Counted from the first letter of the stretch, positions 31,393 to 64,000 are shown. The stretch: 64,000 bases of DNA from Candidatus Oxydemutatoraceae bacterium (GCA_965218975.1 OZ244717.1:288001-352000), one strand, 5' to 3'. Program-made: numbers and translations. The notes: generated from the letters alone by a model not told the origin.

Positions 31393-31740
31393 TTTTGTGT
31401 TTGTTGGCGGATTGTCGGCGGATGTTTAGCGCAGGGCCTGTCATCCATGACGCGACTGGATTCTGTCAACAAGCCCCAGCCCCCACATCCTTGTCGGGTC
31501 GTTCGCCGCTGAAAACCAATTGGTTTTCCGGGCGTGTCTCACCCATGACGCGACTGGGTTCTGTCAACAAGCCCCAGCCCCGACGTCCTTGTCGGGTCGT
31601 TCGCCGCTGAAAACCAATTGGTTTTCCGGGCGCGTCTCACCCATGACGCGACTGGGTTCTGTCAACAAGCCCCTGCCCCGACATCCTTGTCGGGTCGTTT
31701 GCCACTGAAAACCGATCGGTTTTCCGGGCGCGTCTCACCC
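31393..31740 (+). repeat. 98-bp modular element, copy B (leader + 3 units)
   Basis: Units start at 31446, 31544 and 31642 (period 98). Confidence 0.92.
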
Positions 31741-31951
31741 TGACGGACGGCGGGAGTGAGTTTCAAGGACAGTTTGCCCGGCTCATCCGGGAATCACCCG
31801 CGATTGAGCAGTGGCTGACCTATCCCAAGTGTCTAAAAATGAACGCGCACATCGAGCGCTTCAACCGCACCGTCCAAGAAGATTGTATCGATCATGCGGA
31901 AGACCTGCTATTCGCCGATACGGAAGCATTCAATGACCAGTTATGAAACCG

Positions 31952-32210
31952 TTTTGTTTTATTGGTGGATTTTCGGCGGATTGTGCCGGATGTTTAGCGC
32001 AGGGCCTGTCATCCATGACGAGACTTGGTTCTGTCAACAAGCCCCAGCCCCGACGTCCTTGTCGGGTCGTTCGCCGCTGAAAACCAATTGGTTTTCCGGG
32101 CGCGTCTCACCCATGACGCGACTTGGTTCTGTCAACAAGCCCCAGCCCCGACGTCCTTGTCGGGTCGTTCGTCGCTGAAAACCAATTGGTTTTCCGGGCG
32201 CGTCTCACCC
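31952..32210 (+). repeat. 98-bp modular element, copy C (leader + 2 units)
   Basis: Units start at 32014 and 32112. Confidence 0.92.
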
Positions 32211-32360
32211 TGCACCGCCCTCATATCGGCAACGGACAGAAAGCACCGACCCGAATGTTACTGCCGAACGCTTCCTCCGAAGCTCTTCAAAAATCCCATT
32301 TAGGGTGGCATCGTACAGGACCTATACAAACCCTTGTAGTTGTGCCAGAATAGCGCTTTA

Positions 32361-37321: not shown

Positions 37322-38792
37322 TGTACGTGTCCAATACATTCCGGACAAATGAGGCCCGGGTAAATAGAGCGGCTGCCGGACAATGCCTTGATAGAGGGTC
37401 ATGTCGTTTAATCTCCGGTGGGGGCGCTCGCCGTTGTAGCGTTGTAGGTAATCGATCATCTGCCGGTTAAACGCACCGATGTCTTCAAGCAGTAATGCTT
37501 CCCGATAGCCGATAAACTCTTCCTGAACCGTACGGTTGAAGCTGAAGCGCTCGTTATAAGCATTCATTTTGGGGTACCCGGGCAAGTATAGCAGTGGCGG
37601 ATCTTTCGTTGCCGAATGTATTGATCGAATGCGCCTTGAAGCTCGTTGCCGTTGTCGGTCAATACTTGCTCGATTTTGCCCGGCAAGACTGTTTGCACCA
37701 AGGCGACAAACCGAGTCGCTTGGGTGCTATTGCCGCGAGGCACTGCCGCCGAAGGCAAAGCGGCTTGAATGATCCGTTGCGGTCGGAATATAGCGTCGGC
37801 TGCCTTCGATAAAACGGATAATAGTATCGAAAGCAACACAGTGTCCGACATGCTTGGCACCGGCTTTGCGATCTAGACGCGGGCGCGGCGGCTTACGTCG
37901 CAACGGTTTAGCTTGACCTTTGCGGTCCAAGTGCTGCGGTGAGAAACGCATCCGATCCGAGGCATCTGAAATCAAGCATCCGATCGTCGCCGCACTCGGA
38001 CACAACAACCATGCTTGCGGCACCACGGCAAGAGCAACACATAAACCTTGTCCCGTCCCTAGTGGGGTATCTTAGGCGCAGACGACGGATTTCCCGGGTC
38101 AGAGTTTGCGGCCAGACCTGCCGGCGGCGTTTACGCGGCGTTCTGCTGCAGTCGTGCAAACTGCTCAACCCTCCCTTTTGTGTTTGTTGGCGGATTGTCG
38201 GCGGATTGTGCCGGATTGTGCCGGATTGTCGGCAAAGTGCCTGTCATCCATGACGCGACTGGGTTCTGTCAATAAGCCCCAGCCCCGACGTCCTTGTCGG
38301 GTCGTTCACCGCTGAAAACCGGTCGGTTTTCCGGGCGCATCTCACCCATGACGCGACTGGGTTCTGTCAACAAGCCCCAGCCCCGACGTCCTTGTCGGGT
38401 CGTTCACCGCTGAAAACCGGTCGGTTTTCCGGGCGCGTCTCACCCATGACGCGACTGGGTTCTGTCAATGAGCGCCAGCCCCGACGTCCTTGTCGGGTCG
38501 TTCGCCGCTGAAAACCGGTCGGTTTTCCGGGCGCGTCTCACCCTGCCGATAGGCCAGGGGCGCCATACATACAGGGTCGAACGACTGACCTTGAATGCGT
38601 TCGGGAGTTACAACTATCCCAAAATGAGGGCATCATATTTCTGTTGAAGCTTAGAGTGCTCATGAGCCTCTATTTTTGAAGCAAAATTGGCTCATATAGA
38701 AACCTTTGATGCGGTGGCCGATGTGCTGGTATTGCATGCCGGTCACCTTTTTATTGACGTCCAAGAATCCAGTATGTATCTGGGCACGTACA
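37322..38792 (-). mobile_element. decayed IS481-family element (copy 2)
   Basis: Inverted ends TGTACGTGTCCAATACAT / TGTACGTGCCCAGATACAT. Frameshifted transposase from ATG 38737: MQYQHIGHRIKG, HCVAFDT, LTDNGNE, PKMNAYNERF...YNGERPH. Confidence 0.85.
38176..38543 (+). repeat. 98-bp modular element, copy D (leader + 3 units)
   Basis: Units start at 38249, 38347 and 38445; leader has repeated (G/C)CGGATTGT; flanked by CCCT on both sides. Confidence 0.92.
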
Positions 38793-42920: not shown

Positions 42921-43008
42921 CATTTGGCATGTATATACTTACCGGAACATGAAAGATAGTTTTGAGAAAGATTTCAAAGAGCTGACAGAGTTTTCTTTGT
43001 TTGAGTGA
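42921..43008 (+). repeat. duplicated 5' end of the second cas3 (remnant MKDSFEKDFKELTEFSLFE*)
   Basis: 42949-42988 is identical to 51433-51472 (40 nt); the upstream sequences are also similar. Confidence 0.9.
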
Positions 43009-43091
43009 CCATTTCACCGAGAACGATACTTCTTTTGCGCTCAGCATTTGCGCAAATCTCGGCAAAACTTCGGATAGAATAAAGTATTCCT

Positions 43092-46000
43092 ATGAATGAA
43101 TATGCCCACTTCTTTACCAAAGTCAGCAAGCATGACAAGGCGCATTCGTGGCAGAAAAAACTTGCGGATTCACAAAACTGCGGCAACCGACTAATTCGTA
43201 TTCCGACGGGTTTCGGAAAGACTCTGGGCGTGCTTACAACTTGGATATGGCATCGCTTACAGCAGCGCAATGAAAAGTGGCCGCGCCGCCTAGTCTGGTG
43301 TCTGCCTATGCGCGTACTCGTCGAACAAACAGGAAACGAAGCCCGCAAGATCCTCGAAAGTGAGGATATCGATGCACTGTGGGACGGACAAGAAGGCACA
43401 CACGACGGCAAGGTAGGTGTTCACTTGCTTATGGGGGGCACCGATACAGGTCAGTGGTACCTATATCCCGAATACGACGCGGTGCTGATCGGCACGCAGG
43501 ACATGCTACTTTCCCGCGCCATGAATCGTGGCTATGCCTGTCCCAGAGCGCGTTGGCCTATGGAGTTCGGGTTACTGAATCAAGACACTCTGTGGGTGAT
43601 GGACGAAGTGCAGCTAATGGATGTGGGCTTGGCTACTTCGGGGCAGCTTCAGGCGTTTCGAAGCAAAGACCGAAATGACGGGAAGTCGCTGCGACCCTGT
43701 TTCACATGGTGGATGAGCGCGACATTGCAGCAAGCCTGGTTGGAGAAGAGTCCGGACACGGCCGATTTGACCGAAGAGCTGGCTGGGAATAAGCACTGCA
43801 TCGGATCCGAGGATCGGGTAGGACATCTATGGAATAACGTTACCAAAACTCTGAAAATCAATCAGTTTTCCGATCAGAAGAAACTCGCTCAGACCGTTAT
43901 TGAACAACACAAGGAAGGATTAACGTTGGTCGTGCTCAATACGGTGGAGCGAGCCGTCGGAGCCTGGAAGGTGCTTCGGCAAGACAAGACGCTGAAGGAC
44001 GCAAGTACGGACATTCGTTTGATTCATAGTCGATTCCGCCCCGCCGAGCGACGGGCTTGGCGTGAAGAATTTCTCAACCGCGAAGCTTGTGGCCCGGGCA
44101 CGAATCGCATTATCGTTTCTACGCAGGTGGTGGAAGCCGGTGTGGATATCTCGGCATCTCTTCTGATTACCGAGCTTGCCCCATGGCCAAGCTTGATTCA
44201 GAGATTCGGTCGTTGCGCGCGATGGGGTGGTACAGGCCAAGTCATCGTCGCAGATTTCGGGTACGACAGTGACGAGAAAGCCGCTCCCTACTCAAAGGAT
44301 GAACTCGATGCCTCGCGCGATGCCTGCCAGGCATTACCGGATGCCGGGCCGAACCATCTCGAACAATTCGAAGAAAAGAATGGCGCATTACTGCCGCGCC
44401 TCTATCCCTATGAACCCGCTCATCTGTTACTACGCCACGAATTGGATGAATTATTCGATACCTCACCTGATTTGTCGGGAGCGGATATCGACATCAGCCG
44501 CTTTATTCGGTCAGGTAACGAACGCGACGTGCAAGTATTTTGGGCCGAGGTTGCCGACGATGATCCGCCGTCGAACATGAAGCCAACAAGAGATGAACTC
44601 TGTAGTATTCCTTTCCTAAAGACTCGTGACTGGTTGTGCAAACCAAAATCAGAGAATCTGAAACCAGGCGTCCAAGCATGGGTTTGGGATTGGCTGGATC
44701 GCAAATGGCGTAAAGTCAGCCGCCGCGACATCTATCCCGGACAGACGGTGCTGATCGAGAGTACCGTCGGAGGTTATCGCAACGATCGCGGATGGGACCC
44801 GGAGTCCGAGGAACGGGTTAAGCCCATACAGTCGGACTACGCAATCCGGCACAAGAAGAAACTCTGCTGGAAACGACGTAACGGTGGTTGGCAACCTGGC
44901 GAAACCCGGCGGCTCATTCGTGTACCTAAGTCGGAAAATGATGCAAACGCCGCTGAAGCCGATGAATTCCTCAAGCCGGAAGATGATGCGGACGCCGCCG
45001 AAGATGATGAATCCCTGAGCATCACCGATAATTGGCAAACCATTGCCAGTCATGGCTTGGAGGTCGGCAAAAAGGTCCAATGTATCGCAGAGCAAATGCA
45101 GGTTGAGCCGAACTTCGCTAGGCTGCTACATCTTGCCGGGCGTTGGCACGATCTCGGTAAAGCTCATCCTGCGTTCCAGAGTTCCATTCAGGCAGATACC
45201 CGCCCCGAGCGGGAAGACATTGCCAAAGCTCCCGATATCGCCTGGCCGTGCAGCTTCAATAATTTGTACCGTATCAACGCCGGTGATCAACGACGCGGTT
45301 TCCGCCATGAGCTGGCGAGCACGCTCGGCTTGTTCGGCGTGCTGCAACGGCACAATCCCGAACACCAAGCTTTACTTGGCCCTTGGCGCAAGTGGTTTGA
45401 TGCAATGAATGAAGTCAATCAAAACGCTATTGAATCGTCGGATGAGTCTGTCAATGGTAATGACATTTCCGAGCCTACGGCCATTGAACAGGAAATACTC
45501 AATCTTACTGCTCAAGAGTTTGATTTGCTTGCCTATCTGATTTGTTCCCATCACGGTAAAGTGCGCATGGCCTGGCATGCAAGTTCTTCCGACCAGAAAG
45601 CCGATGATAGCCGAGTGCGTATTCGTGGCATCCGGGAAGGCGATATTTTGCCTCCTGTGCAGCTGGCTGCTGTTGATGGCAGTTTTCATCAGTTGCCGGC
45701 TACCGAACTTGACCTGGCACCGTCAGAAATGGGTTTGAGCCTCCGAACCGGCAGGAGCTGGTCCGAGCGCGTATTAAGTCTTGTTGAACGCTTCGGGCCG
45801 TTCAATCTGGCTTGGCTGGAAGCTGCGTTGCGCTCAGCTGATATGCGTGCCTCGCGACAGGTGGCTACGGAAGATCCATTATTGCAAAAGCAGGAGAATT
45901 ACCACGCGAAGCATCAGTTGGATATAGATTCGGAAACGGTTCGGGTGCCGTATTCGGCCACCCGCTACGTTAAGACTTCTATCGGCATCCTGAGCCACCA

Positions 46001-46411
46001 AAAACTTGTTTCACTGCTGACTGAACGGATTGCCGATATCGAACAGGCTATTGCTAAGCGAGCGCTTGCGGGGCTGCGCATCTATGATCTCTTGCCGGAG
46101 CTGCACCGACGCATTTGCGCTAACTTGACTCCGAATATCGCCGGGCATTGGCGTTCTCGGGATGTTCGTGCCGGCAAACGCAAAGCGCCGACGTATTCGC
46201 GGATCCCAACGTTGATGCGCGACTATACCAACGATCTTGAAGCGCGTTGGAACGGTAACAATGGCAAACTTGATAAGGAACGGATTGATAGGAGCTTCGC
46301 TTTCACCGAAAATCAACTCCGCTACATTCACCCTTTCGAAGAATTCAACGACCACGTTACTCATCTGTTCCTCATTGAGATTAGGCGCCGCTTCGCGCAG
46401 AGAGGCCTGCA

Positions 46412-46415
<4 letters not shown>
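43092..46415 (+). CDS. cas3: type I-G Cas3 (helicase then HD) with C-terminal Fic-like domain
   Basis: IPTGFGKT, DEVQ, STQVVEAGVD, QRFGRCAR, WHDLGK, FRHELAS, SHHGK; C-terminal LHRRIC...WRSRDV...IHPFEEFNDH. Confidence 0.92.
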
Positions 46416-49674
<3,259 letters not shown>

Positions 49675-49679
49675 GGTGC

Positions 49680-51389
49680 ATGTCGGTATCTCTTGCTTTT
49701 CGTTTCCTTGCCGGGCGTTATCACGCGACGCCCTACGGCCACCACGTCAACGAAGGCTTGATTGAGTGGCCACCCTCTCCGTGGCGGCTGTTGCGTGCGC
49801 TGATCTCGGTCGGCTACACATCCGGCGTGTGGAATGGTACCGGCTTGTTGCCTGAGGCTCGCAGCTTGATTGAAAATCTGTCCGCCGAGCTGCCGCGCTA
49901 CTTTATCCCACCTATGGTTGGCACTCACAGCCGTCATTACATGCCGATTGGTGCACTGGATGAGAAGAAAATCGAAAAGACGACCCTGGTGTTCGACACC
50001 TGGGCGCGGGTTAAAGACCAAGATTTGGTTGTTACTTGGTCCAACGTGCCTCTGGACGATGATGAACGTAACATGTTGGGCGTTCTGATGGAGCGGCTGA
50101 ATTACTTAGGGCGCTCGGAGAGCTGGGTCCAAGGCCGGGTAATAGGAGAAGGTGAACAGATTCCGGAAGCCAATTGTTTTCCCGAAGAATACAGAGATAA
50201 CCCCGGACACGGCTGGGAGCAGATTACCCTTCTTGCACCTAATAGCGCGTCCGATTTCAAGACTTGGCGGGAGGCACAGATCAAAGAGGCGCTGGCCAAA
50301 TTGCCTTTGCCGGAAGGAAAAAAGCCAACAAAAAAGCTGCGCAAGGATCAGGATAAAGCTAAGGCAGCTTATCCTGACGATCTGCTTGACTGCTTGCAGA
50401 AAGATACGACATGGGTGCGCTCTCACGGTTGGAATCGGCCGCCCGGCAGTCGGCGTGTCTTCTATTGGCGACCATCCAATGCCATATCGGTTGGTGCCCC
50501 GAAGGCAAGAACAGCAGCTCGACGCCAGCCACGGGTTGAAGCCATGCTTCTATCTCTCACGAATACCAGCCGCAACGACCACGCGTTGCCGCCGGTGACC
50601 AGAACTTTGCCACAGGCAGAATTGCTGCATCGCAATCTCGTCGGTATTGCAGCTAAGATGCTGAAAGCTCAGCAACAAGAAAAGCATGAGGAATTGCTAT
50701 CACCTGAACTGACCGGGCGCGACGACAACCGCCGACCGCTTCGAGGACCGCATGAACACGCACACATCAATCCTCTTGATCTCGACGGCGACGGGCACCT
50801 GGACCACATTCTCGTCTGGGCGCCGGGGGGACTCGGTGCCGAAGCCCAGGCGGCCATTCGCGCGGCACGGACAACTTACACCAAGGGCAGCGGCGAACCG
50901 CTGCGCCTGGCACCGGCCGTAACAGGTGACCTGCAAAATTTGGCTCGGTTGCCTCTGGAATACGGACAACGTGTCATCCGTCTTGTTTCCCGTTCGGTTT
51001 CTTCGGATGGCGCGACGGTTTGGGAATCCCTGACGCCCTTCGTTCCTCCAAGGTATCTCAAACTGCGTGGCAAAAACACATTGGAAGGACAAATACACGC
51101 CGAGCTTCAATCGAGAGGATATCCTGAACCAGCCTCGGTGCATCCATTCGCGCCAATGTTCCGGAATCAAAATGATGCCGTGTCGGCAGGTAGCGCTGCC
51201 GGCGAACGAAGCAAAACGACCTGGAGCCGTTTCCGCCATTTCAAGATCATGCGTCAACGCGGACCGACGCCACCGGTCGTATGCTGGTTTGGCATCCGGC
51301 TGGAGTTTGATCGTCCGGTCCGAGGTCCCATAGCGCTTGGATACGCCTCGCATTTTGGTCTAGGGCTGTTCACTGCTGTTGACCCATAA
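49680..51389 (+). CDS. csb2: type I-G Csb2 (Cas5-Cas6 fusion), module 1
   Basis: GRYHATP, EWPPSPWRLLRAL, YLGRSESW, C-terminal GPIALGYASHFGLGLF. Confidence 0.9.
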   Translation: MSVSLAFRFLAGRYHATPYGHHVNEGLIEWPPSPWRLLRALISVGYTSGVWNGTGLLPEARSLIENLSAELPRYFIPPMVGTHSRHYMPIGALDEKKIEKTTLVFDTWARVKDQDLVVTWSNVPLDDDERNMLGVLMERLNYLGRSESWVQGRVIGEGEQIPEANCFPEEYRDNPGHGWEQITLLAPNSASDFKTWREAQIKEALAKLPLPEGKKPTKKLRKDQDKAKAAYPDDLLDCLQKDTTWVRSHGWNRPPGSRRVFYWRPSNAISVGAPKARTAARRQPRVEAMLLSLTNTSRNDHALPPVTRTLPQAELLHRNLVGIAAKMLKAQQQEKHEELLSPELTGRDDNRRPLRGPHEHAHINPLDLDGDGHLDHILVWAPGGLGAEAQAAIRAARTTYTKGSGEPLRLAPAVTGDLQNLARLPLEYGQRVIRLVSRSVSSDGATVWESLTPFVPPRYLKLRGKNTLEGQIHAELQSRGYPEPASVHPFAPMFRNQNDAVSAGSAAGERSKTTWSRFRHFKIMRQRGPTPPVVCWFGIRLEFDRPVRGPIALGYASHFGLGLFTAVDP

Positions 51390-51432
51390 ACAGCAGCGTT
51401 GAATAGCATTTGACGTATATACTTATCGGAAT

Positions 51433-54185
51433 ATGAAAGATAGTTTTGAGAAAGATTTCAAAGAGCTGACAGGATTTCCTCCGTTCAAATGGCAGAAACG
51501 CCTTTTCTATGAGCGTTTCGCCAAAGGTGATATTCCTTCTGCGCTCGACATCCCGACAGGTCTCGGCAAGACTTCGGTGATGGTAATCTGGTATTTGGCC
51601 CGGAAGGCCAAAGCTGCATTGCCCCGGCGTTTAGTTTATGTGGTTGATAGACGGGCAGTCGTTGATCAGGCGACAACTGTGGCCGATGAAATTAAAAAGA
51701 AATCAAAGGACGATACATTGCGGGTGAGCACGCTGCGCGGTCAACATGTGGATAATCGGGAATGGCTTGCGGACCCAGTTGCGCCGGCCATTATTGTCGG
51801 CACCGTTGATATGATCGGCTCACGGCTGTTGTTCTCGGGTTACGGCGTATCACGCAAGATGCGCCCCTATCATGCGGGTCTGCTCGGAGCGGATACGCTC
51901 GTCGTGCTTGACGAAGCGCATTTGGTTCCACCGTTTGAAAAACTTCTCGAAAAGATTGCGAAGATTGTGAACGGAGCCAACGTATTCGGTCCGCGCGAGC
52001 AAGAGGACCGAAGAATAACGCCGCCCCTCAAGTTGCTTTCGCTGTCGGCTACAGGACGTGAAAATGATCAAAGCAGAAAAGGAGGATTCTCGCTTCTTCG
52101 CGAAGACTGGGAAGATGAAGTTGTTAAGAAGCGTCTGGAAGCACGAAAACGACTTACGATCCAAGTGCTCAATGATGCAGAAAAGCTGGCACAGGAGCTG
52201 GCCGAGCGGGCATGGAAACTTGGAGAGAAGCCGGCACGTGTGCTCGTTTATTGCGATCGCAGAAAAGATGCTGTGGAAGTAAAGAATAAAATTGATAAGA
52301 AGTTTGAGAAAGGAACCCCCGAACCTGTTTCCGAACTTTTGGTCGGCGGGCGGCGTGTGTTTGAGCGGCAAACGCTTTCTGACTGGTTGAAAGAGTACGG
52401 TTTCTTTGGCGATGCCAAAGGATCGCCAAAGCAGCCGACTTTTCTGATTGCGACCTCAGCCGGTGAAGTAGGCGTTGATCTTGATGCGGACCACATGGTG
52501 TGCGATTTGGTCGAGTGGGAGCGCATGGTGCAGCGCCTTGGCCGTGTGAATCGGCGCGGCAACGGGGATGCCCGTATTGAGGTCGTTGCCGCGCCCCGCA
52601 CGGAAAAGCCCAGCAATCAAAAAAAGGCCAAAGAGTGGGAGAAACTCTTGGCCTGTTTCCGCAAGCCGCTGGACAGCCTGCGTTGTGTCGGCGTACAGGA
52701 CGAACGGGACGCGAGCCCGGGTGCGCTCCTGGAACTCAAAGAACGCGCGGAAAATCATTCGGAACTACGAAACGCGATTGAAGCGGCAACAACACCGGTC
52801 CCGTTGCGGCCGGCATTGACTCGTGCCCTCGTTGATGCGTGGTCTATGACCTCGTTGGACGAGCATACGGGGCGACCGGACGATATTCAGCCGTGGCTGC
52901 GCGGATGGGAGGAAGATCCACAACCGCAAACTACGGTTGTCTGGCGCAAGTATCTGCCGGTACGCGCAAATGGGACCGAGACGGAGGCAACGAAGAAAGA
53001 AATTGAAGCATTTTTTGAAGCAGCGCCTCCGCATACGAGCGAGAAACTTGAAATCGAGACTGGTAAAATTGTTGGATGGTTTTCCGAACGTGCCGAGAAA
53101 CAATTCCAAATAAAGAAAACCGTCGACTCGGCGGCAGAACCAAGCGAATCCGACGACAACTCCATCGCAGATATTCAACCGTTACTGAAGAAAGATATTT
53201 GTGCCTATGTCCTGTCGCCTGCTCACGATTTGCTCTCTATACTTAAAGGGCATGACTGCGATAATAATACGAAGGTTAAAGAATACATTCTTCCCGGTTC
53301 CACGCTCATAGTGGACGCGCGCTTTGGTGGTCTTTCAGAAGAAGGGATGCTTGCAGAAGAGGGGATGCTTGATGAGAATGCTAGCGGTCCGCCGCGCACG
53401 ATTGACGACGATGAAAATTGGCTGCCTGACGATGGAGAGGGCAAGCCAACCATAAGGTTCCGTGTGCGACACGTTACTGGCGTTACTGAAAGTGACAGCA
53501 CCGAGTCAAAACCAGACTCAGGTTGGCGGGAGCGGCTGAGGTTTGATCTTAAACGTAGCGAGGAAGGCGAAGCTACCAAGTGGCTGCTCGTTGAGAAATG
53601 GCGCGACGACTCCGAAACCGGGGACGACCGTTCCATAGGTAGGTTGCAAGAATTGTGTGAGCATCACGCCTGGACGGAAGCCAAGGCGCGTAAAATAGCC
53701 AACGCTTTAGATCTGCCTGACTCCCACATTGAATTGCTAGCCGTTGCGGCACGACTGCACGATAAAGGAAAGCAACACTCATTGTGGCAACGGGCTGCCA
53801 AGGCCCCGCAGGACGGTAAAATTTATGCAAAGACGGATAAACGGATGAATGTTAATTTGCTGAATAAATATCGTCATGAATTCGGCTCGCTTCCGTTCGC
53901 TAAAGAAGATGCAGATTTTAAGGCTTTGCCTGCTGACTTGCAGGAACTTTCTCTGCATTTGATCGCGACACATCACGGTTATGCGCGGCCTGTCATTTCT
54001 ACTAGCGGTTGCGACGACCCTCCTTCTGTTCTTGAAAAACGCGCCCGCGATGTTGCACTACGATTCGCCCAAATGCAGAAGCGATGGGGGCCTTGGGGAT
54101 TGGCCTGGTGGGAATCATTGTTGCGCGCCGCAGACCAACAAGCCTCACGCGATAATGATGACCCCAATCGAAAGAAGGATAACTA

Positions 54186-54186
<1 letters not shown>
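51433..54186 (+). CDS. cas3: second type I-G Cas3 (helicase then HD)
   Basis: IPTGLGKT, VVDRR, DEAH, TSAGEVGVD, QRLGRVNR, LHDKGK, YRHEFGS, HHGYARP. Confidence 0.93.
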
Positions 54187-56160
<1,974 letters not shown>

Positions 56161-56192
56161 CAAGAATCTCATTTAAGTTTCTTGAGTTAACT

Positions 56193-58382
56193 ATGAATCG
56201 GACACTTCTCCTCTCGGCTTATTTTCATGACGGTCGCTATCACGGTGAATGTGGGCATGGCAGCAGCGAGTGGCCTCCAGCACCGGCGAGACTATTTCAG
56301 GCGCTGGTTGCCGGTGCCGCAAGAGGTGCCGAATTAGCTGGCAGGGACGAAACGGCGCTTGAATGGCTTGAGAAGCTTGGAGCACCGGTGATTGCCGCAC
56401 CAACCGTTCGCCGGGGCCAACTCTACAAAATCTATGTGCCGAATAACGATCTCGACGCGGTCGGCGGTGACCCGAGGAAAATCAACCAGATTCGAGTCGG
56501 GAAGTACGTACATCCACATATTTTCGATGCGAGAATACCACTACTCTTCGTCTGGACATTCAATAGCGGTGCATTCAGCGAAGATCATGCTCAAGCCGTC
56601 TGCCAAATCGCGGAGCAACTCTATCAATTGGGGCGAGGCATTGACATGGCTTGGGCTTCGGCAGAGCTTCTGGACGCAGGCGAAGTTGAAACACGCCTCA
56701 ATCGTCATGGCGGTGTTGTGTATCGGCCGAGCAAAGCTGGAGTCGGCAAGATGTTGTTGTTCTGTCCAAAGAAAGGATCATTTGCGAGCCTCAAAGAGCG
56801 ATACGATGCGAACAGGAAACGCTTCACCTATATAAGAAAGGGTAGGGGGTTTCAGCAACTTTTCTCTCAGCCACCTAAGCCACGGTTTGCCAGGGTCGCG
56901 TATAACGCTCCACCTCAGCGTTTTCTATTTGAGCTACGTGCAGCTACGCACAATGAATCTTTTGTGACATGGCCATCCGCTCGAACGGTTGAGCTCGTTG
57001 TAGCTTTGCGGGATAAAGCAGCTGATAAATTGAAAGACAAACTACCCGAAGAGGCTGGAAAGATTGACCGCGTATTTATAGGCTGTGAGGCAACGGAGGC
57101 AGACAAAGCTGCCCGGATACGGATTTTACCGCTTCCTTCTATTGGTCATATCCATGCGGATCGTGCGATTCGCCGGGTACTGGTTGAAGTACCGCCAAAT
57201 TGCCCGCTACGCTCGGATGACGTAGCTTGGACATTTTCCGGCCTTCCTGAGGTTGACCGAACGACCAGAGAAATCCTATGGAATCTTGTGCAGACACAAG
57301 AACGGATGATGCTCAAACACTATGGAATTAATAGCAGTAAACAACAGAGCTTCCGTGTCTGGCATACGGTTACTCCCGCGGCTCTGCCGGTCATGCGGAC
57401 AGGACGCAGAAATTCCGGAGCCAAACGTGTTGCAAGGGAAGCGAAAGTAACTCGCGCTGTTATGCAAGCGCTACGTCATGCCGGAGTGACAGAACCGGTA
57501 GAGTCTGTTCGCGTGCAACGCGAACCGTTTGATCGCAATGGTTCCCGGGCAGAAGAGTTTGCGATACCCGAGCGATTTGTCGCACGTGGTCTACATCACG
57601 TGGAGATTACTTTTGCGCGAGCCATACGCGGTCCTCTTATTATCGGGAACGGCCGCTATCTTGGGCTAGGGCTGATGGCGCCGCGAGAGATCGTCGTGCG
57701 TGACGCGCTGGCTTTTCCAATAACGCCAAATATCGCTGTCGCCGATACTGCGCTGTTGTTACGTTCGGTCAGGCGCGCATTGATGGCATTGTCGCGAGAC
57801 GGTGCTAATGGGCATGTCCCTCGACTTTTCTCCGGGCATGAGCCCGATGGCGCACCGGCAAAATCCGGTGGACATGATCATATTTTTCTTGCCGCGGATG
57901 ACGTTGACAGAGACGGACTCATTGAGCGGTTGATTGTTGCTGCGCCATGGGTTTGCGACCACACCACCAAGGAAACTCTTAAGGATCGCACTTGCTTTGA
58001 TAGAGTATCCAGGCAGTTAACCAACGTTCGAGCCGGCAGACTCGGCATTCTTACTATTGGTCCCGCACAGACTCTGACGGTCGGCGACCCACTTGTCGGG
58101 CCTGCCTGCGTATGGGAAAGTCGTAGCCCTTATCGCCCGACACGCCATGCCGGGCGAGGCAAAGATTTAGATGCTGCTGTCGCACGCGACATAATCGCCG
58201 AATGCGAACGTCGCGGCTTGCCTAAGCCTGAAGTCGAATTGTTAGAGCTCAACGCCGGTCCAAACGGCGGCAATCTAACTGCTCGCGCACGTCTTCGTTT
58301 TGCTGTAGCAGTTACGAAACCGATCATGCTCGGATGTGACAGCCACAGAGGCGGAGGCCTTTTTTCCGCCGTGAGCGGATAA
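56193..58382 (+). CDS. csb2: extended type I-G Csb2, module 2
   Basis: HDGRYHG, EWPPAPARLFQALVAG, YVPNND, LGRGIDMA; two G-rich loops (GNGRYLGLGL and GCDSHRGGGLF). Confidence 0.88.
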   Translation: MNRTLLLSAYFHDGRYHGECGHGSSEWPPAPARLFQALVAGAARGAELAGRDETALEWLEKLGAPVIAAPTVRRGQLYKIYVPNNDLDAVGGDPRKINQIRVGKYVHPHIFDARIPLLFVWTFNSGAFSEDHAQAVCQIAEQLYQLGRGIDMAWASAELLDAGEVETRLNRHGGVVYRPSKAGVGKMLLFCPKKGSFASLKERYDANRKRFTYIRKGRGFQQLFSQPPKPRFARVAYNAPPQRFLFELRAATHNESFVTWPSARTVELVVALRDKAADKLKDKLPEEAGKIDRVFIGCEATEADKAARIRILPLPSIGHIHADRAIRRVLVEVPPNCPLRSDDVAWTFSGLPEVDRTTREILWNLVQTQERMMLKHYGINSSKQQSFRVWHTVTPAALPVMRTGRRNSGAKRVAREAKVTRAVMQALRHAGVTEPVESVRVQREPFDRNGSRAEEFAIPERFVARGLHHVEITFARAIRGPLIIGNGRYLGLGLMAPREIVVRDALAFPITPNIAVADTALLLRSVRRALMALSRDGANGHVPRLFSGHEPDGAPAKSGGHDHIFLAADDVDRDGLIERLIVAAPWVCDHTTKETLKDRTCFDRVSRQLTNVRAGRLGILTIGPAQTLTVGDPLVGPACVWESRSPYRPTRHAGRGKDLDAAVARDIIAECERRGLPKPEVELLELNAGPNGGNLTARARLRFAVAVTKPIMLGCDSHRGGGLFSAVSG

Positions 58383-58867
58383 GCGCATAGAACTGTTGCC
58401 GAGACGAGCGTGTGAACACCTGCTATGGTGGCGCCCTAATTTGATTTTCCCTTTACAGGTTCCAAAACCCCTTTTGGCTATAATAGATACTATTATTAAC
58501 GTATTAACGGCATCCTCGCGAGGACGATTATGGTCGGAGCTATCAAGCTCGGATCAGTTGGTTATGGACGCAACCAAGTAAACCGGAGTGTTTTTGTCGT
58601 TTGCCACCGAAACAGACTGATCATTGGACAACAATCGGAAAATCTGGTGAAAAAATATTGATTTACCAACAGGATATTGTGAAATATATACTAATTAGAT
58701 TAGAAGAGGGGAATTTCGGCAATTCTTATCTAGTATCGGCTCGGGCGAAAATGATTCAGAGCGATGTCTTTTACGGAGTAATGAAAAGCCTTGCGAGAAA
58801 GAAAAAAGGTTGCCGGTCACGCTATCGTGATTGGTCGAAATAAAACCCGTCGATTGCGCTTAGCGCA

Positions 58868-60589
58868 ATGCTCATGCCAAGACAAGTGATCCAACAGGAA
58901 TTACCCCTGCCTTTTCCAAAGCTTGGCGCAGACATGCCATTATTGCCGGCGCGTATGGTGAATGAGTACGAATATTGCCCGCGTCTCGCTTATCTGGAGT
59001 GGGTACAAAAAGAATGGGCAGATTCGTCGGATACCGTCGAGGGCAAGTATCGGCATCGTCGCGTCGATAGATTCGGGGGCAATTTGCCGGACCCGGAGCA
59101 GGTGGCGGCAGACGAAACATTTCACGCGCGTTCGATTACTTTGTCCTCGAATCAACTCGGGGTTATTGCAAAACTTGATTTGGTGGAAGGGGAAGGCAAT
59201 GCCGTTATCCCTGTAGATTATAAAAAGGGGAAACGCCCCCATGTGGCACGAGGTGCATACGATCCCGAACGTGTTCAACTATGCCTGCAGGGCATGTTGT
59301 TGGAAGAGCACGGTTATGAATGTGCGGAGGGGATCTTGTATTACGCGGAATCGAAGGAACGGATACGTGTGATCTTTGATAAAGAATTGAAAAACAAAAC
59401 CCTGTCCGCAGTCTCTAGCCTGCGCCTCATGGCTGCCGGCAAAAAAATGCCGCCGCCTTTGGAAGACAGCCCTAAATGCCCGCGTTGTTCTTTGGTTGGC
59501 ATCTGCCTTCCGGATGAAGTTAACTTTTTGAAGTATATGAAAACACCGCCGAGACCTCTAAGTGTCGCGCAGGACGACAGCCTTCCGGTATATGTGCAGG
59601 CCAACCGCGCCTCTGTCAAAAAGGCAGGAGAGACTCTGGAAATCCTGGTTGAGGATAAGTTAGTCAAGAAAGCCCGTTTGCCGGAGGTTTCGCAAGTAGT
59701 CTTAATGGGCAATGTATATCTCACCACTCCCGCTTTGTGCGAACTCATGCGCCGGGAAATTCCGATCACTTGGCATTCCTTTGGCGGCTGGTTTCTGGGG
59801 CATACCATTGGCACCGGACACAAAAATGTCGAGCTGCGCACGGCACAGTTCAAGGCCAGTTTTGATGAACAGGTGTGTCTGACTTTGTCTAAAGGGTTCG
59901 TGCGCGCCAAGATTCAGAATTGTCGCATCATGATGCGGAGAAACTGGAAGCTGAAAGATAAGCCTGCCAGACTGTACCGTGCATTTCACCAAGATGCTAA
60001 CCGGTCTGACCGTGTGTCTTCAATAACCGAATTATTGGGTGTGGAGGGTAATGCGGCAGCGCGATATTTCGGTGAATTTCAAAATTTGATCAAGCGGGAA
60101 AAGGACACGGATCAATTTATTTTTGAGTTTGAGAAGCGCAACCGTCGTCCGCCGGCAGACCCAGTCAATGCTTTATTGTCATACGCTTATAGCCTTTTAA
60201 CACGTACCTGGACGGTTACCCTTACTGCGGTAGGGTTTGATGCATACCGTGGATTTTTTCATCAGCCCCGCTATGGCCGTCCGGCGCTGGCGCTGGATAT
60301 GATGGAACCCTTTCGTCCTTTGGTTGCCGATTCCACAGTGTTGATGGCAATTAACAACGGTGAAGTTCGTCCGGGCGATTTCATATCTGCGGCTGGTAGC
60401 TTCAATCTGACGCCTGCAGGAAGAAAACGGTTTATCGGAACATTTGAACGGCGACTGAGTCAGGAAATTATTCACCCGCTGTTCGGCTATAAAATCAGTT
60501 ACCGCCGCCTGTTTGAGGTGCAAGCCAGACTGTTGGCTCGATTCCTTCTTGGCGAGTTGATTGAGTTTCCCCAATTTACCACGCGGTGA
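58868..60589 (+). CDS. cas1: Cas4-Cas1 fusion
   Basis: Cas4 motifs YCPR, KLDLVE...DYKKG and CPRCSLVGIC; Cas1 motifs LGVEGNAA, RNRRPP.DPVNALLS, LALDMMEPFR. Confidence 0.95.
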   Translation: MLMPRQVIQQELPLPFPKLGADMPLLPARMVNEYEYCPRLAYLEWVQKEWADSSDTVEGKYRHRRVDRFGGNLPDPEQVAADETFHARSITLSSNQLGVIAKLDLVEGEGNAVIPVDYKKGKRPHVARGAYDPERVQLCLQGMLLEEHGYECAEGILYYAESKERIRVIFDKELKNKTLSAVSSLRLMAAGKKMPPPLEDSPKCPRCSLVGICLPDEVNFLKYMKTPPRPLSVAQDDSLPVYVQANRASVKKAGETLEILVEDKLVKKARLPEVSQVVLMGNVYLTTPALCELMRREIPITWHSFGGWFLGHTIGTGHKNVELRTAQFKASFDEQVCLTLSKGFVRAKIQNCRIMMRRNWKLKDKPARLYRAFHQDANRSDRVSSITELLGVEGNAAARYFGEFQNLIKREKDTDQFIFEFEKRNRRPPADPVNALLSYAYSLLTRTWTVTLTAVGFDAYRGFFHQPRYGRPALALDMMEPFRPLVADSTVLMAINNGEVRPGDFISAAGSFNLTPAGRKRFIGTFERRLSQEIIHPLFGYKISYRRLFEVQARLLARFLLGELIEFPQFTTR

Positions 60590-60593
60590 GACA

Positions 60594-60884
60594 TTGGAAG
60601 AACATCTTTATGTCATTGCTTATGACATTTCCGATCAAGCAAGGGGGCGCCTGATATTCAAACTGCTGCATGGTTATGGGGAATGGTTGCAAATGTCTGT
60701 CTTTCAATGCCGGCTATCCCGTCGTCGTCATGCGGAATTGATTGCCATGCTGGACGAAATTATCCACCACACGGAAGATCATGTTATGCTGATGGACCTG
60801 GGATTAGCGGATTCGGTTAAACCGAAAATTGTAAGTCTAGGCAAAGGTTTTCAACCGGTGGAAAGGGAACCGATTATTGTCTGA
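60594..60884 (+). CDS. cas2: Cas2
   Basis: YVIAYDISD, YGEWLQMSVFQC; TTG 60594 start preferred. Confidence 0.93.
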   Translation: MEEHLYVIAYDISDQARGRLIFKLLHGYGEWLQMSVFQCRLSRRRHAELIAMLDEIIHHTEDHVMLMDLGLADSVKPKIVSLGKGFQPVEREPIIV

Positions 60885-61095
60885 TGTTCTTCCGTTCTTC
60901 ATAACTCCCGCGAGAGCCTAGGTGATGAACGTTTGTCCGGGCAGTGCTCGCATAAAAATGTTCTTTGACAATCAGTATCTTACAGGTGACATCTTGCAAA
61001 AAAAATACAAGAAACACGACAGTGTTATGATGCATTTAGACCTCTCGAAATGGCTTTCTATAATCTTTGCCAAACAATAGGTTATGGGATGTGCT
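60885..61095 (+). promoter_or_regulatory. CRISPR leader
   Basis: AT-rich non-coding stretch between cas2 and the first repeat; includes a GCGAG...CTCGC inverted pair. Confidence 0.75.
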
Positions 61096-64000
61096 GTATT
61101 CCGTAGCTATATGCTACGGCCTCATTGAAGCATCTCCATTTTATACGCGGCAGAATTACCGCGTGATGTATTCCGTAGCTATATGCTACGGCCTCATTGA
61201 AGCGATATGGCCACATTCGGCGATGAGGACGATGACATCAGTATTCCGTAGCTATATGCTACGGCCTCATTGAAGCTAGAAGTAGTGGTTTTATACCTTG
61301 ATAGAAGTTTTGTTGTATTCCGTAGCTATATGCTACGGCCTCATTGAAGCCGACACTGTATGTGATCGCGAGCTACTCTGTGACACGTATTCCGTAGCTA
61401 TATGCTACGGCCTCATTGAAGCGAGAATAATGAAAAGTAAGATGAAAACACCTGCTTATGTATTCCGTAGCTATATGCTACGGCCTCATTGAAGCTTTTG
61501 CAGCAAGCTGCTAAAATTATGATAACAGATTGTATTCCGTAGCTATATGCTACGGCCTCATTGAAGCTTCTAAGTTCGGCTTCCATCATTTGTTGAGCAC
61601 CTGGTATTCCGTAGCTATATGCTACGGCCTCATTGAAGCATCTACAAGTCGCTCGCATCTCCGCACGTCATCGGCGTATTCCGTAGCTATATGCTACGGC
61701 CTCATTGAAGCAGCACCGGTAGTTTCTGTTGAAGAACTTGCTATGAAGTATTCCGTAGCTATATGCTACGGCCTCATTGAAGCCAATGCCAAAGACCTAA
61801 TGCACCATGTCATTAGATGTATTCCGTAGCTATATGCTACGGCCTCATTGAAGCATCGACCAGCCGCTCGCATTTCTGCACGTCATCGGCGTATTCCGTA
61901 GCTATATGCTACGGCCTCATTGAAGCGAGATAACCGTCAGTAATTCCGCAAAGAATTTTGTGGTATTCCGTAGCTATATGCTACGGCCTCATTGAAGCGA
62001 TTACTTGGGCACAAGAAACGAAAGCAGCATATCGTATTCCGTAGCTATATGCTACGGCCTCATTGAAGCGAATTTTCAAGCGTTTGCGTGTACCAGATAT
62101 GCCGGGTATTCCGTAGCTATATGCTACGGCCTCATTGAAGCCGTACAGGCAGTCACGCATCGGAGATCGGCATCGCGGTATTCCGTAGCTATATGCTACG
62201 GCCTCATTGAAGCGAGAGGTTAGCTGCACCTGCCGACTGGAAAGAATCAAGTATTCCGTAGCTATATGCTACGGCCTCATTGAAGCTCGAGTTATCTTCG
62301 CGTTAGTCGGGTCAAAAAATAGTATTCCGTAGCTATATGCTACGGCCTCATTGAAGCCTGCAATTCAACCTGCAAACCGTTTTTTACAATGCGGTATTCC
62401 GTAGCTATATGCTACGGCCTCATTGAAGCTGCCGCAAGTGTCGGGTTGCCGAAGTCGTTAAATGCGTATTCCGTAGCTATATGCTACGGCCTCATTGAAG
62501 CTTTACCCCGCTCCACAATGGCCATGATTGCTGCGTAGTATTCCGTAGCTATATGCTACGGCCTCATTGAAGCTGCGGGTCGCCGACGCAAGAAAAAAGG
62601 TTGCATTAGGTATTCCGTAGCTATATGCTACGGCCTCATTGAAGCTTGGCGGGACGCAACTAAGTCGACCGAAGGGTTAGGTATTCCGTAGCTATATGCT
62701 ACGGCCTCATTGAAGCTGGGCTGTACCCTGACGACTCCTGCGAATTTGATGATGTATTCCGTAGCTATATGCTACGGCCTCATTGAAGCGCGGTAAACGC
62801 TAACTCCATGTTCAGCTAATCGGCTGCGTATTCCGTAGCTATATGCTACGGCCTCATTGAAGCCTCACTGCCTTCGTTTCCTTCCAGCATAATTACAGCG
62901 TATTCCGTAGCTATATGCTACGGCCTCATTGAAGCTATATTTTTTTTCTACATCTTCCATGTTTTATCTCCGTATTCCGTAGCTATATGCTACGGCCTCA
63001 TTGAAGCCCACGATTATCTTTGTGTTGCGAATGATTGCCGAGGTATTCCGTAGCTATATGCTACGGCCTCATTGAAGCCGGTGTAAAATCATCCATCAAA
63101 ATAACGGTCTTGCTGTATTCCGTAGCTATATGCTACGGCCTCATTGAAGCAAGAAATTGAACATCGGCTACAGCTATGATACCTGACGTATTCCGTAGCT
63201 ATATGCTACGGCCTCATTGAAGCTGTTTTGTAGTAGTGCATTGTTAGCAGTTCGTTTGTGTATTCCGTAGCTATATGCTACGGCCTCATTGAAGCTTCTC
63301 CAATAACTGTTGGGTCAGGCACAAGGCCTGCGTATTCCGTAGCTATATGCTACGGCCTCATTGAAGCTAGTAAGATCATTAGTTCTGCTGTTTTGAGATT
63401 CCGGTATTCCGTAGCTATATGCTACGGCCTCATTGAAGCTGCAAGAGCTAATTGAAGGTGGAAAAAATGGCAGGTGTATTCCGTAGCTATATGCTACGGC
63501 CTCATTGAAGCAACGTTACACAGAATTAGTTGTATAGACTTATTAGGGTATTCCGTAGCTATATGCTACGGCCTCATTGAAGCCCACGATTATCTTTGTG
63601 TTGCGAATGATTGCCGAGGTATTCCGTAGCTATATGCTACGGCCTCATTGAAGCCGGTGTAAAATCATCCATCAAAATAACGGTCTTGCTGTATTCCGTA
63701 GCTATATGCTACGGCCTCATTGAAGCTCATTGACTCGGGATATGGACGTCCTCGATTCTTTAGTATTCCGTAGCTATATGCTACGGCCTCATTGAAGCTA
63801 TGCAAAAGATACCGAAGAATACAATAATTTGAAGTATTCCGTAGCTATATGCTACGGCCTCATTGAAGCTTTGAAGATCAATATGTATTCAATCGTTAAG
63901 TTGGGGTATTCCGTAGCTATATGCTACGGCCTCATTGAAGCACATTGGATAGTGCTGCGATTGAGCCTTTTATGAGAGGTATTCCGTAGCTATATGCTAC
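61096..64000 (+). CRISPR. type I-G CRISPR array, 36-bp repeat GTATTCCGTAGCTATATGCTACGGCCTCATTGAAGC, continues beyond window
   Basis: Counted 40 complete repeats plus a partial 41st; spacers are 35-38 nt; stem CCGTAGC/GCTACGG; 3' end ATTGAAGC. Confidence 0.99.

Follow-up and report, generated by a model that had tools for sequence, protein, structure and literature searches.

A type I-G CRISPR-Cas locus with two divergent effector modules, one adaptation module and one array

The window analysed here is a stretch of 64,000 nucleotides (nt) from the genome of a Candidatus Oxydemutatoraceae bacterium (GCA_965218975.1 OZ244717.1:288001-352000), and it contains a type I-G CRISPR-Cas locus in which two sets of effector genes precede one set of adaptation genes and one array (Table 1). 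Ten open reading frames (ORFs) lie on the plus strand between 43092 and 60884, all of them uninterrupted. They run in the order Cas3g-Cas8g1/Csx17-Csb1-Csb2 (module A), followed after the 43 bp that separate the end of csb2A at 51389 from the start of cas3B at 51433 by Cas3g-Cas8g2-Csb1-Csb2 with a long Csb2 (module B), and after a further 485 bp by Cas4g/Cas1g-Cas2 and the array. Genes were identified with the NCBIfam type I-G models and Pfam by comparing bit scores with family cut-offs, and all ten scores are far above the NCBIfam cut-offs with the exception of that of Cas8g2. Cas3g, Csb2 and Csb1 each occur twice over cut-off (both Csb1 copies in NCBIfam as well as in Pfam), the Cas4-Cas1 fusion and Cas2 occur once, and both large subunits occupy the gene position expected from relatives. 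A first-pass annotation of the same DNA had proposed a cas3(-Fic)-csx17-csb1-csb2 set followed 43 bp later by a second module with uninterrupted frames; the ORFs and the NCBIfam matches confirm this arrangement, and the profile comparison likewise assigns one large subunit to the Csx17 type and, at a borderline score, the other to the GSU0052/Csb3 type.

Table 1. Coordinates of the features of the tandem I-G locus, counted from the first letter of the window (aa, amino acids).
Feature	Position	Strand	Support or remark
Direct repeat copy 1: ribosome-site region and first 13 codons of cas3B, MKDSFEKDFKELT	42931..42988	+	56/58 identical to 51415-51472
Decayed cas3B 5' relic (codons 1 to ~49)	42931..43075	+	alignment and tblastn; stops, 20-nt deletion
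Cas3g, module A, 1107 aa: helicase, HD nuclease, Fic-like tail	43092..46415	+	TIGR02621 760 bits (cut-off 400), residues 3-922
Degenerate, truncated Fic-like C-terminal tail of Cas3A (~residues 1000-1107)	~46089-46415	+	Fic 19.4 and 23.1 bits (Pfam threshold 24)
Cas8g1/Csx17 large subunit, 763 aa	46412..48703	+	TIGR04113 620 bits (cut-off 150)
Csb1/Cas7g, module A, 322 aa	48706..49674	+	TIGR02570 84.5 bits (cut-off 38); PF09617 131 bits
Csb2 (Cas5-Cas6 fusion), module A, 569 aa	49680..51389	+	TIGR02165 174.6 bits (cut-off 45)
Direct repeat copy 2, overlapping the true cas3B start	51415..51472	+	18 bases before the cas3B ATG and first 13 codons
Cas3g, module B, 917 aa	51433..54186	+	TIGR02621 619 bits (cut-off 400)
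Cas8g2 (GSU0052-type small 'large subunit'), 306 aa	54186..55106	+	TIGR04106 125.3 bits (cut-off 125, borderline)
Csb1/Cas7g, module B, 366 aa as longest ORF	55060..56160	+	TIGR02570 139.6 bits (cut-off 38)
Csb2, module B, long form, 741 aa	56157..58382	+	TIGR02165 360.5 bits (cut-off 45), residues 16-509
Cas4g/Cas1g fusion, 573 aa	58868..60589	+	NF049935 817 bits (cut-off 560)
Cas2, 107 aa	60561..60884	+	TIGR01573 35.5 bits (cut-off 24.5)
Leader	60885..61095	+	best sigma-70-like site of the region at 61035-61064, 10/12 matches
CRISPR array, 36-nt repeat GTATTCCGTAGCTATATGCTACGGCCTCATTGAAGC, 35-38-nt spacers	61096..64000	+	extends beyond the window to C1:354327

Cas3A and Cas3B are 26% identical, Csb2A and Csb2B share only patches of about 25% identity, Csb1A and Csb1B (the Cas7 proteins) have no significant likeness in BLASTP, and Cas8g1 and Cas8g2 have no detectable similarity. 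As none of the paralogues exceeds 26% identity, modules A and B represent different I-G lineages. This agrees with the first-pass annotation, which had called the paralogues very divergent on account of their Cas7 motifs (present as quoted) and the unequal length of the large subunits (763 versus 306 aa) and had seen in them two lineages and no recent duplication. The integrity of the modules was assessed on alignments of every window protein to the homologues in the collected loci, by counting deviations over columns that are at least 95% conserved. Csb1A (113 columns), Csb2A (97), Cas8g1 (92) and Csb1B (90) have none; Cas3A has two in 230 and Cas3B two in 149, all of them conservative; Cas8g2 has four in 41 and Csb2B eight in 137. 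Csb2A retains the histidines conserved in its family, including H558 ahead of the glycine-rich loop. Relaxed selection on Csb2B was considered and rejected, since a leave-one-out count gives this protein five deviations against a family median of three and a maximum of 12, and it is no outlier. Judged by the conserved columns, neither module resembles a decaying copy, the C-terminal tail of Cas3A excepted.

Both modules stand in front of the only I-G array of the genome, which is a single 2.081-Mb contig (99.4% complete, 0.08% contamination). The array holds 73 repeats (72 exact and one with a single mismatch) and 72 spacers of 35-38 nt. Genome-wide there are exactly two Cas3g over cut-off and two Cas1 genes. 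The second CRISPR locus, 1.29 Mb away (G000:C1:1639893-1645651; L017 11892-17651), is of type II: besides a type II cas1 and cas2 it has a different repeat, in seven copies around 30-nt spacers, and a cas9 that is apparently broken, its two ORFs (714 and 437 aa) lying about 600 bp apart. A genome-wide repeat scan found no CRISPR-like array beyond these two, and with the only other Cas1 and array belonging to type II, no hidden second I-G array is left to serve one of the modules. The single adaptation module and single repeat type noted earlier for the window thus hold for the whole genome, which has one I-G Cas4g/Cas1g and one I-G array. A 98-bp unit that forms short tandem runs of two to three copies, 94-97% alike (window 31441-31745, 32009-32250 and 38244-38543), has relatives at some 25 further places in the genome; it is without spacers and so is not CRISPR. 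The whole array gave no match to 50,697 phage records, two spacer patterns gave none each in IMG/VR, and no spacer matches the genome itself outside the array. Nine spacers are present two or three times, a two-spacer block is duplicated exactly (62972-63150 and 63548-63726), and one target sequence is represented by two variants, spacers 8 and 11. On contigs of co-occurring strains there are at least two spacers that the window genome lacks.

Loci of the Cas8g1 type (A-type) and of the Cas8g2 type (B-type) share one repeat family (…GGCCTCATTGAAGC). In both the A-type consensus (28 distinct repeats from 28 arrays) and the B-type consensus (23 distinct repeats from 30 arrays), about 4 nt are followed by a G+C-rich stem of 5-7 bp, a loop of about 6 nt and then GGCC(T/C)CATTGAAGC, and the window repeat, a 36-nt hairpin ending in the ...ATTGAAGC handle, fits the one as well as the other. 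An A-type locus (L053, from a record of Thauera aminoaromatica S2) and a B-type locus (L146, a metagenome contig) have an identical 36-nt repeat. Between the two, 3.3 kb of DNA are 94.7% identical (L053 14819-18088, L146 4559-7834), a block that begins about 500 bp upstream of cas4/1, spans cas2 and the leader and enters the array, and their effector genes have no DNA similarity; the pair is a clean natural effector swap. A Cas4/1 tree of 33 A-type and 30 B-type loci requires at least 12 switches of effector type among its 63 tips. Shuffled labels require 21.3 on average and no fewer than 15, and the count of 12 may be blurred by the origin of the two sets in different collections; the nearest Cas4/1 relatives of the window include both effector types. 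Because both lineages natively use one repeat family, and because the adaptation-leader-repeat block of L053 and L146 is nearly identical, it is plausible that one set of CRISPR RNAs (crRNAs) serves both Cascades. That one Cas4/1 family serves both effector types argues in addition for a single protospacer-adjacent motif (PAM) common to the two effectors, and shared crRNAs together with a shared PAM would be the most economical reading. The same argument weakens the earlier idea that two different Cascades could widen PAM tolerance.

A trace of how the tandem may have arisen lies directly upstream of cas3A. A 58-bp direct repeat flanks module A on both sides; its upstream copy opens a relic of the cas3B 5' end, and its downstream copy belongs to cas3B itself, which is intact. 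The relic is heavily decayed beyond its first 58 bp, retains a Walker A remnant at 43057-43073 and ends 17 bp ahead of the cas3A ATG. Comparable remains occur in relatives: L025 and L027 have a B-type cas3 fragment of 60-61 codons, 67-75% identical to the N-terminus of the window Cas3B, that runs into a stop about 20 bp short of cas3A, and L019 has a fragmented cas3B relic upstream of cas3A. All three loci belong to the clade in which Cas3 bears a Fic tail (the Cas3-Fic clade, described below). We infer that the lineage of module A carries a B-type cas3 5' fragment ahead of its own cas3, and that module A entered by recombination with a resident cas3B through homology at the cas3B start; a single crossover of the Campbell type would leave just such a direct-repeat bracket, a relic before cas3A and an intact cas3B.

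Taken one step further, the Cas3-Fic/Cas8g1 module might be a mobile, adaptation-less cassette that uses its piece of B-type cas3 as a homology arm, homes into resident I-G loci and lives off their arrays. We offer this generalization tentatively and hold it to be somewhat doubtful. Were it true, the outcome would be either a replaced resident effector or a two-effector locus, type I-G systems would evolve by trading entire interference cassettes while the adaptation-plus-array chassis stays constant, and several I-G effectors reading one array would build up in genomes. A tblastn search with Cas8g1 returned no match among 72,556 plasmid and 50,697 phage records. Homologues of Cas8g1 with 60-77% identity occur in records titled Vicinamibacterales, Nitrospirales, cyanobacteria, Alpha- and Gammaproteobacteria and Latescibacterota (L018-L028), and one with 58% identity in a record titled as a Nitrosopumilaceae archaeon metagenome-assembled genome (L038); none was found in 40 genomes of the window's own family or order. 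This unusually strong conservation across distant phyla, combined with absence from the 40 relatives, indicates that the Cas8g1 module clearly moves horizontally.

How often the two modules meet was surveyed from both sides. From the A side, the Cas8g1 alignment was run against genome contigs, and the best 80 of 329 relatives were taken with 10-kb flanks; from the B side, the Csb1B alignment was run against metagenome contigs, and from the best 80 of 256 relatives the 56 contigs of at least 6 kb were mapped. A-side loci have the layout Cas3-Cas8g1-Csb1-Csb2, often followed by Cas4/1-Cas2 and an array, and B-side loci the layout Cas3-Cas8g2-Csb1-long Csb2-Cas4/1-Cas2-array. Since the latter recurs among the mapped loci, module B with the adaptation genes and the array corresponds to an ordinary stand-alone Cas8g2-type locus, and 51 homologues of Cas8g2 (29-44% identity) sit at the same gene position in such loci. 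Module A is a Cas8g1-type effector set without adaptation genes of its own. Parts of a second I-G-like module were found in five of the 80 Cas8g1 loci, all five among the 28 loci of the Cas3-Fic clade and none among the 52 others, a comparison in which related genomes are not independent. A canonical B module beside module A was met in one of the 80 loci, and Cas8g1 beside module B in none of the 56 mapped from the B side.

That single case is a second genome (L045/L098) with the architecture of the window, in which Cas3A-Fic, Cas8g1, Csb1A and Csb2A are followed on one contig, after 3 kb, by Cas3B, Cas8g2 (208 bits), Csb1B and long Csb2B and, after 2 kb, by the start of Cas4/1. In L051/L180, module A precedes Csb1-Csb2-Cas3g and a 'Cas3-extension' protein (NF049934), after which come a single Cas4g/Cas1g-Cas2 and an array whose repeat is of the same family; in L026 and L027 the second module consists of distant Csb1/Cas3 genes, 27-30% identical, and in L039 of a Csb1-like piece only. 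The second module of L180 (2280-9071; G044:C1:3430279-3437070) encodes Csb1 of 425 aa, Csb2 of 563 aa, Cas3g of 962 aa and the NF049934 protein of 325 aa; it is a third I-G layout, with no recognisable Cas8g, flanked by two AAA-ATPase/PD-(D/E)XK genes and one DUF4143 ATPase gene. A common composite ancestor of the window and L045 was considered and is unsupported by the trees, where the two are sisters in neither module: by distance to the window, L045 ranks 14-27 of 67-77 in three module A trees and second of 67 in the Csb2A tree, and L098 ranks 21 of 45 in module B. The tandem has therefore probably arisen more than once.

Ten genomes whose Cas3-Fic cassette has no adaptation gene in its flank were also searched. 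Cas4g/Cas1g is over cut-off in eight of the ten, never more than once, and two to six Cas3g are over cut-off in eight of the ten. The repeat end was present in all five genomes tested, in 45 to 239 copies (G047, G048, G049, G051 and G054); for G047 and G049, where most positions are listed (five copies are for G048, none for G051 and G054), the listed copies form an array near Cas4g/Cas1g. Three to six Cas3g accompany one Cas4g/Cas1g in G049 (the genome of L033), G047, G048, G053 and G054, and in G049 three Cas3g are found no more than 35 kb from the adaptation genes and from an array containing 162 repeat-end copies. Several I-G effectors per adaptation module are a recurring state in the Cas3-Fic clade, and the window holds the most compact form of it.

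The clade takes its name from a Fic tail on Cas3, found in 28 of the 80 Cas8g1 loci (L018-L091). The canonical Fic motif is HxFx(D/E)GNGRxxR. Most of 26 full-length homologous tails that were aligned carry HPFEDFNGRV(S/T)R, and three that were tested score 42-46 bits against the Pfam Fic threshold of 24, their motif being canonical except for F instead of G at position 6; in L051 the Cas3g-Fic protein has a tyrosine in place of the catalytic histidine. The tail of the window Cas3A, which the first-pass annotation had labelled Fic, does not qualify as a Fic/Doc domain (PF02661): its score lies below the Pfam threshold, its motif is degenerate (HPFEEFNDHVTH compared with HPFEDFNGRVSR in homologues, so that the NGR..R part is lost), and the protein ends about 45 residues before its homologues. 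With a degenerate motif and a missing C-terminal end, the Fic of the window locus is probably inactive, and the suggestion of a division of labour that includes a Fic-linked response loses ground accordingly.

The locus is a composite of two parts, and its gene content and integrity, the direct repeat with its relic, the identity of repeat family and the natural effector swap are established by the comparisons above. The explanation that we favour, at a probability of roughly 0.6, is that a Cas8g1-type cassette recombined into the cas3 start of a resident Cas8g2-type system, and that both modules, which are kept intact, probably draw on a single array and a single PAM, which would provide redundancy. 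The resident, downstream part would have been a self-sufficient cas3g-cas8g2-csb1-long csb2-cas4g/cas1g-cas2-leader-array locus, and the incoming, upstream part an adaptation-less set of cas3g with its Fic tail, cas8g1, csb1 and csb2; a single crossover at the cas3B-start homology would then have duplicated the cas3B start and placed module A in between. From their arrangement we further infer that modules A and B, which are 43 bp apart on one strand, are probably transcribed together; a scan listed no terminator-like site in the gap, its yield over the region being at chance level (15 promoter-like sites with 15.6 expected, 27 terminator-like sites with 22.5 expected). Cas4g/Cas1g-Cas2 would fill the one array, either Csb2 could cut the pre-crRNA at the shared ...ATTGAAGC handle, and two biochemically different Cascades, each with its own Cas3, would use the same spacers and the same PAM. 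The benefit may be redundancy, for instance against inhibitors or mutations that disable one of the effectors. G+C is highest in module A (53.8%), lower in module B (51.8%), lower again in the adaptation genes (49.7%) and lowest in the genome (47.7%), a gradient that weakly fits module A as the later arrival.

Several observations weigh against this explanation. The Cas8g2 match is just above its cut-off (125.3 versus 125). The tandem is rare, with a canonical B module in one of the 80 Cas8g1 loci and Cas8g1 in none of the 56 mapped B-type loci, and the trees, in which the window and L045 are no sister lineages, give no support to a pair inherited jointly over long times. In L019 and L025 the relic and module A are followed by Cas4/1-Cas2 and the array without module B, a layout that fits effector replacement better than lasting coexistence. 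Contigs from four DNA runs of one study, in which several strains are present, confirm the window sequence piecewise, but they end inside the 58-bp repeat (X1 record 4 at 51462, X4 record 27 at 51444), and contigs ending there fit both the integrated form and an excised circle with an empty site.

These last contigs bear on whether the 58-bp repeats could have mis-joined a separate A cassette, circular or from another strain, into a B locus during assembly. The two repeat copies have a run of 40 bp in common without a difference, which is longer than the word length of the short-read contigs, and the mixture of strains in the four runs would favour such an error. We nevertheless consider an artefact highly improbable. 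The assembly is one contig of 2.08 Mb with the completeness and contamination given above, the repeat copies differ at two bases and the contig coming from csb2A carries the version of the downstream copy without differences, the relic-plus-cassette layout recurs in independent assemblies, and another genome has the order A+B within a single contig. All of this, from the closed genome and the two diagnostic mismatches to the recurrence elsewhere, speaks for a real A/B join. A real join leaves room for a division in which only one module interferes by means of the array, the other being silent, re-purposed (in regulation or a toxin-linked response) or unable to use the repeat. The degenerate and truncated Fic of Cas3A shows that module A has ceased to maintain one function at least, and there are departures from conserved columns in Csb2B (8 of 137) and Cas8g2 (4 of 41). 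But conserved columns are kept in both Cas7, in both Csb2 and in the helicase and HD parts of either Cas3, the deviations of Csb2B stay within the range of its family, the window repeat fits the consensus of both lineages, and the only other array in the genome is of type II; we therefore regard a single working module as improbable.

More serious is the possibility that the tandem is a snapshot of effector replacement, in which the Cas8g1 cassette has arrived, the resident Cas8g2 module has not yet been lost and the pairing brings no benefit. The completed swap between L146 and L053, with different effectors on a shared adaptation-leader-repeat block, shows the end point of such a process. 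L019 and L025, the 12 or more changes of effector type among the 63 tips of the Cas4/1 tree and the rarity of tandems point the same way. The G+C gradient is that expected of a newer arrival, and the flanking 58-bp repeats would ease the loss of module A. Yet neither module has decayed at positions conserved in its family, and the heavy decay of the relic after its first 58 bp argues that the arrangement is not brand new. Module A is also kept beside another complete I-G module in at least two other genomes, and the two to six Cas3g in eight of ten genomes, with never more than one Cas4g/Cas1g, suggest that multiplicity is tolerated or favoured. On balance we think a mere snapshot rather unlikely and retain recombination into a resident locus, with both effectors armed from the one array, as the preferred explanation.

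Some details of the gene calls deserve mention. Alignments of csb1B homologues begin at residues 5-28, most at 12-25, and the true start of csb1B is probably the ATG at 55108 (M17), right after the cas8g2 stop; the longest ORF of csb2B probably starts too early as well, as homologue alignments begin near M13 (56193). The extra length of Csb2B is a C-terminal Cas6-like domain (about residues 560-741), of which residues 571-739 align to residues 356-567 of Csb2A, and the long form is the norm for the lineage, 44 homologues spanning at least 80% of the 741 aa. A phmmer search of Csb2A and Csb2B against PDB sequences gave no match. Upstream of the locus lie housekeeping genes (macro domain, amidase, gshA and pyrF).

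All components of the locus belong to known families. In the literature searched, subscription papers and supplements aside, we found no description of tandem or dual I-G modules on one adaptation module, of a relic-and-repeat signature of I-G cassette integration or of a Cas3-Fic fusion. The direct repeat with the cas3 relic offers a concrete, checkable route for the exchange of whole interference cassettes between CRISPR loci, and the Cas3g-Fic clade, with a Fic domain intact in most relatives, is an uncharacterised link of a type I nuclease-helicase with a protein-modifying domain. If both effectors are loaded from the array, the locus would be a test bed for redundancy against anti-CRISPR proteins or effector loss, for PAM reading by Cas8g1 compared with the minimal Cas8g2, and for the separation of related Cascade subunits inside one cell.

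One adaptation module with its array can supply several co-resident effectors, as when a type III system draws on type I arrays, and thereby give back-up immunity. Array sharing is known mainly between types, and the known cases pair different types with different targets; in the window both effectors are of type I and of one subtype, DNA-targeting, deeply diverged, each with its own Cas3, and placed behind one adaptation module in one operon-like locus. Fic/Doc toxin genes have been noted in Cas3-containing type I loci, including that of Geobacter sulfurreducens, in the passages drawn on from Zhang, Doak and Ye (2013; PMC3936711); those genes are separate and encode about 256 aa, whereas in the clade of the window Fic is fused to the C-terminus of Cas3g. 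For the I-G system of Thioalkalivibrio sulfidiphilus, the passages used from Shangguan et al. (2022; PMC9638904) describe Csb2 as the pre-crRNA nuclease, which cuts the 36-nt repeat through a C-terminal Cas6-like domain and leaves an 8-nt 5' handle, and Cas3 as a stable part of the effector, held through Cas8g; they mention three size variants of Cas8g and contain nothing on their co-occurrence. Module A has the same four effector genes (Cas3, Cas8g1/Csx17, Cas7 and Csb2) and differs in that it lacks its own adaptation genes and array, bears a degenerate Fic tail on Cas3 and is followed by a second, different I-G effector. For the I-U/I-G system of G. sulfurreducens, which is of the Cas8u2 type, the corresponding passages of Almendros et al. 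(2019; PMC6547450) give the order cas3, cas8u2, cas7, cas5/6, cas4/1, cas2, a Cas4-Cas1 fusion, spacers of 36 bp, a repeat that ends in AGC and a TTN PAM that is selected at adaptation and needed for interference. Module B and the adaptation genes follow this gene order, and unlike in G. sulfurreducens the Csb2B of the window is a long form with an extra Cas6-like domain.

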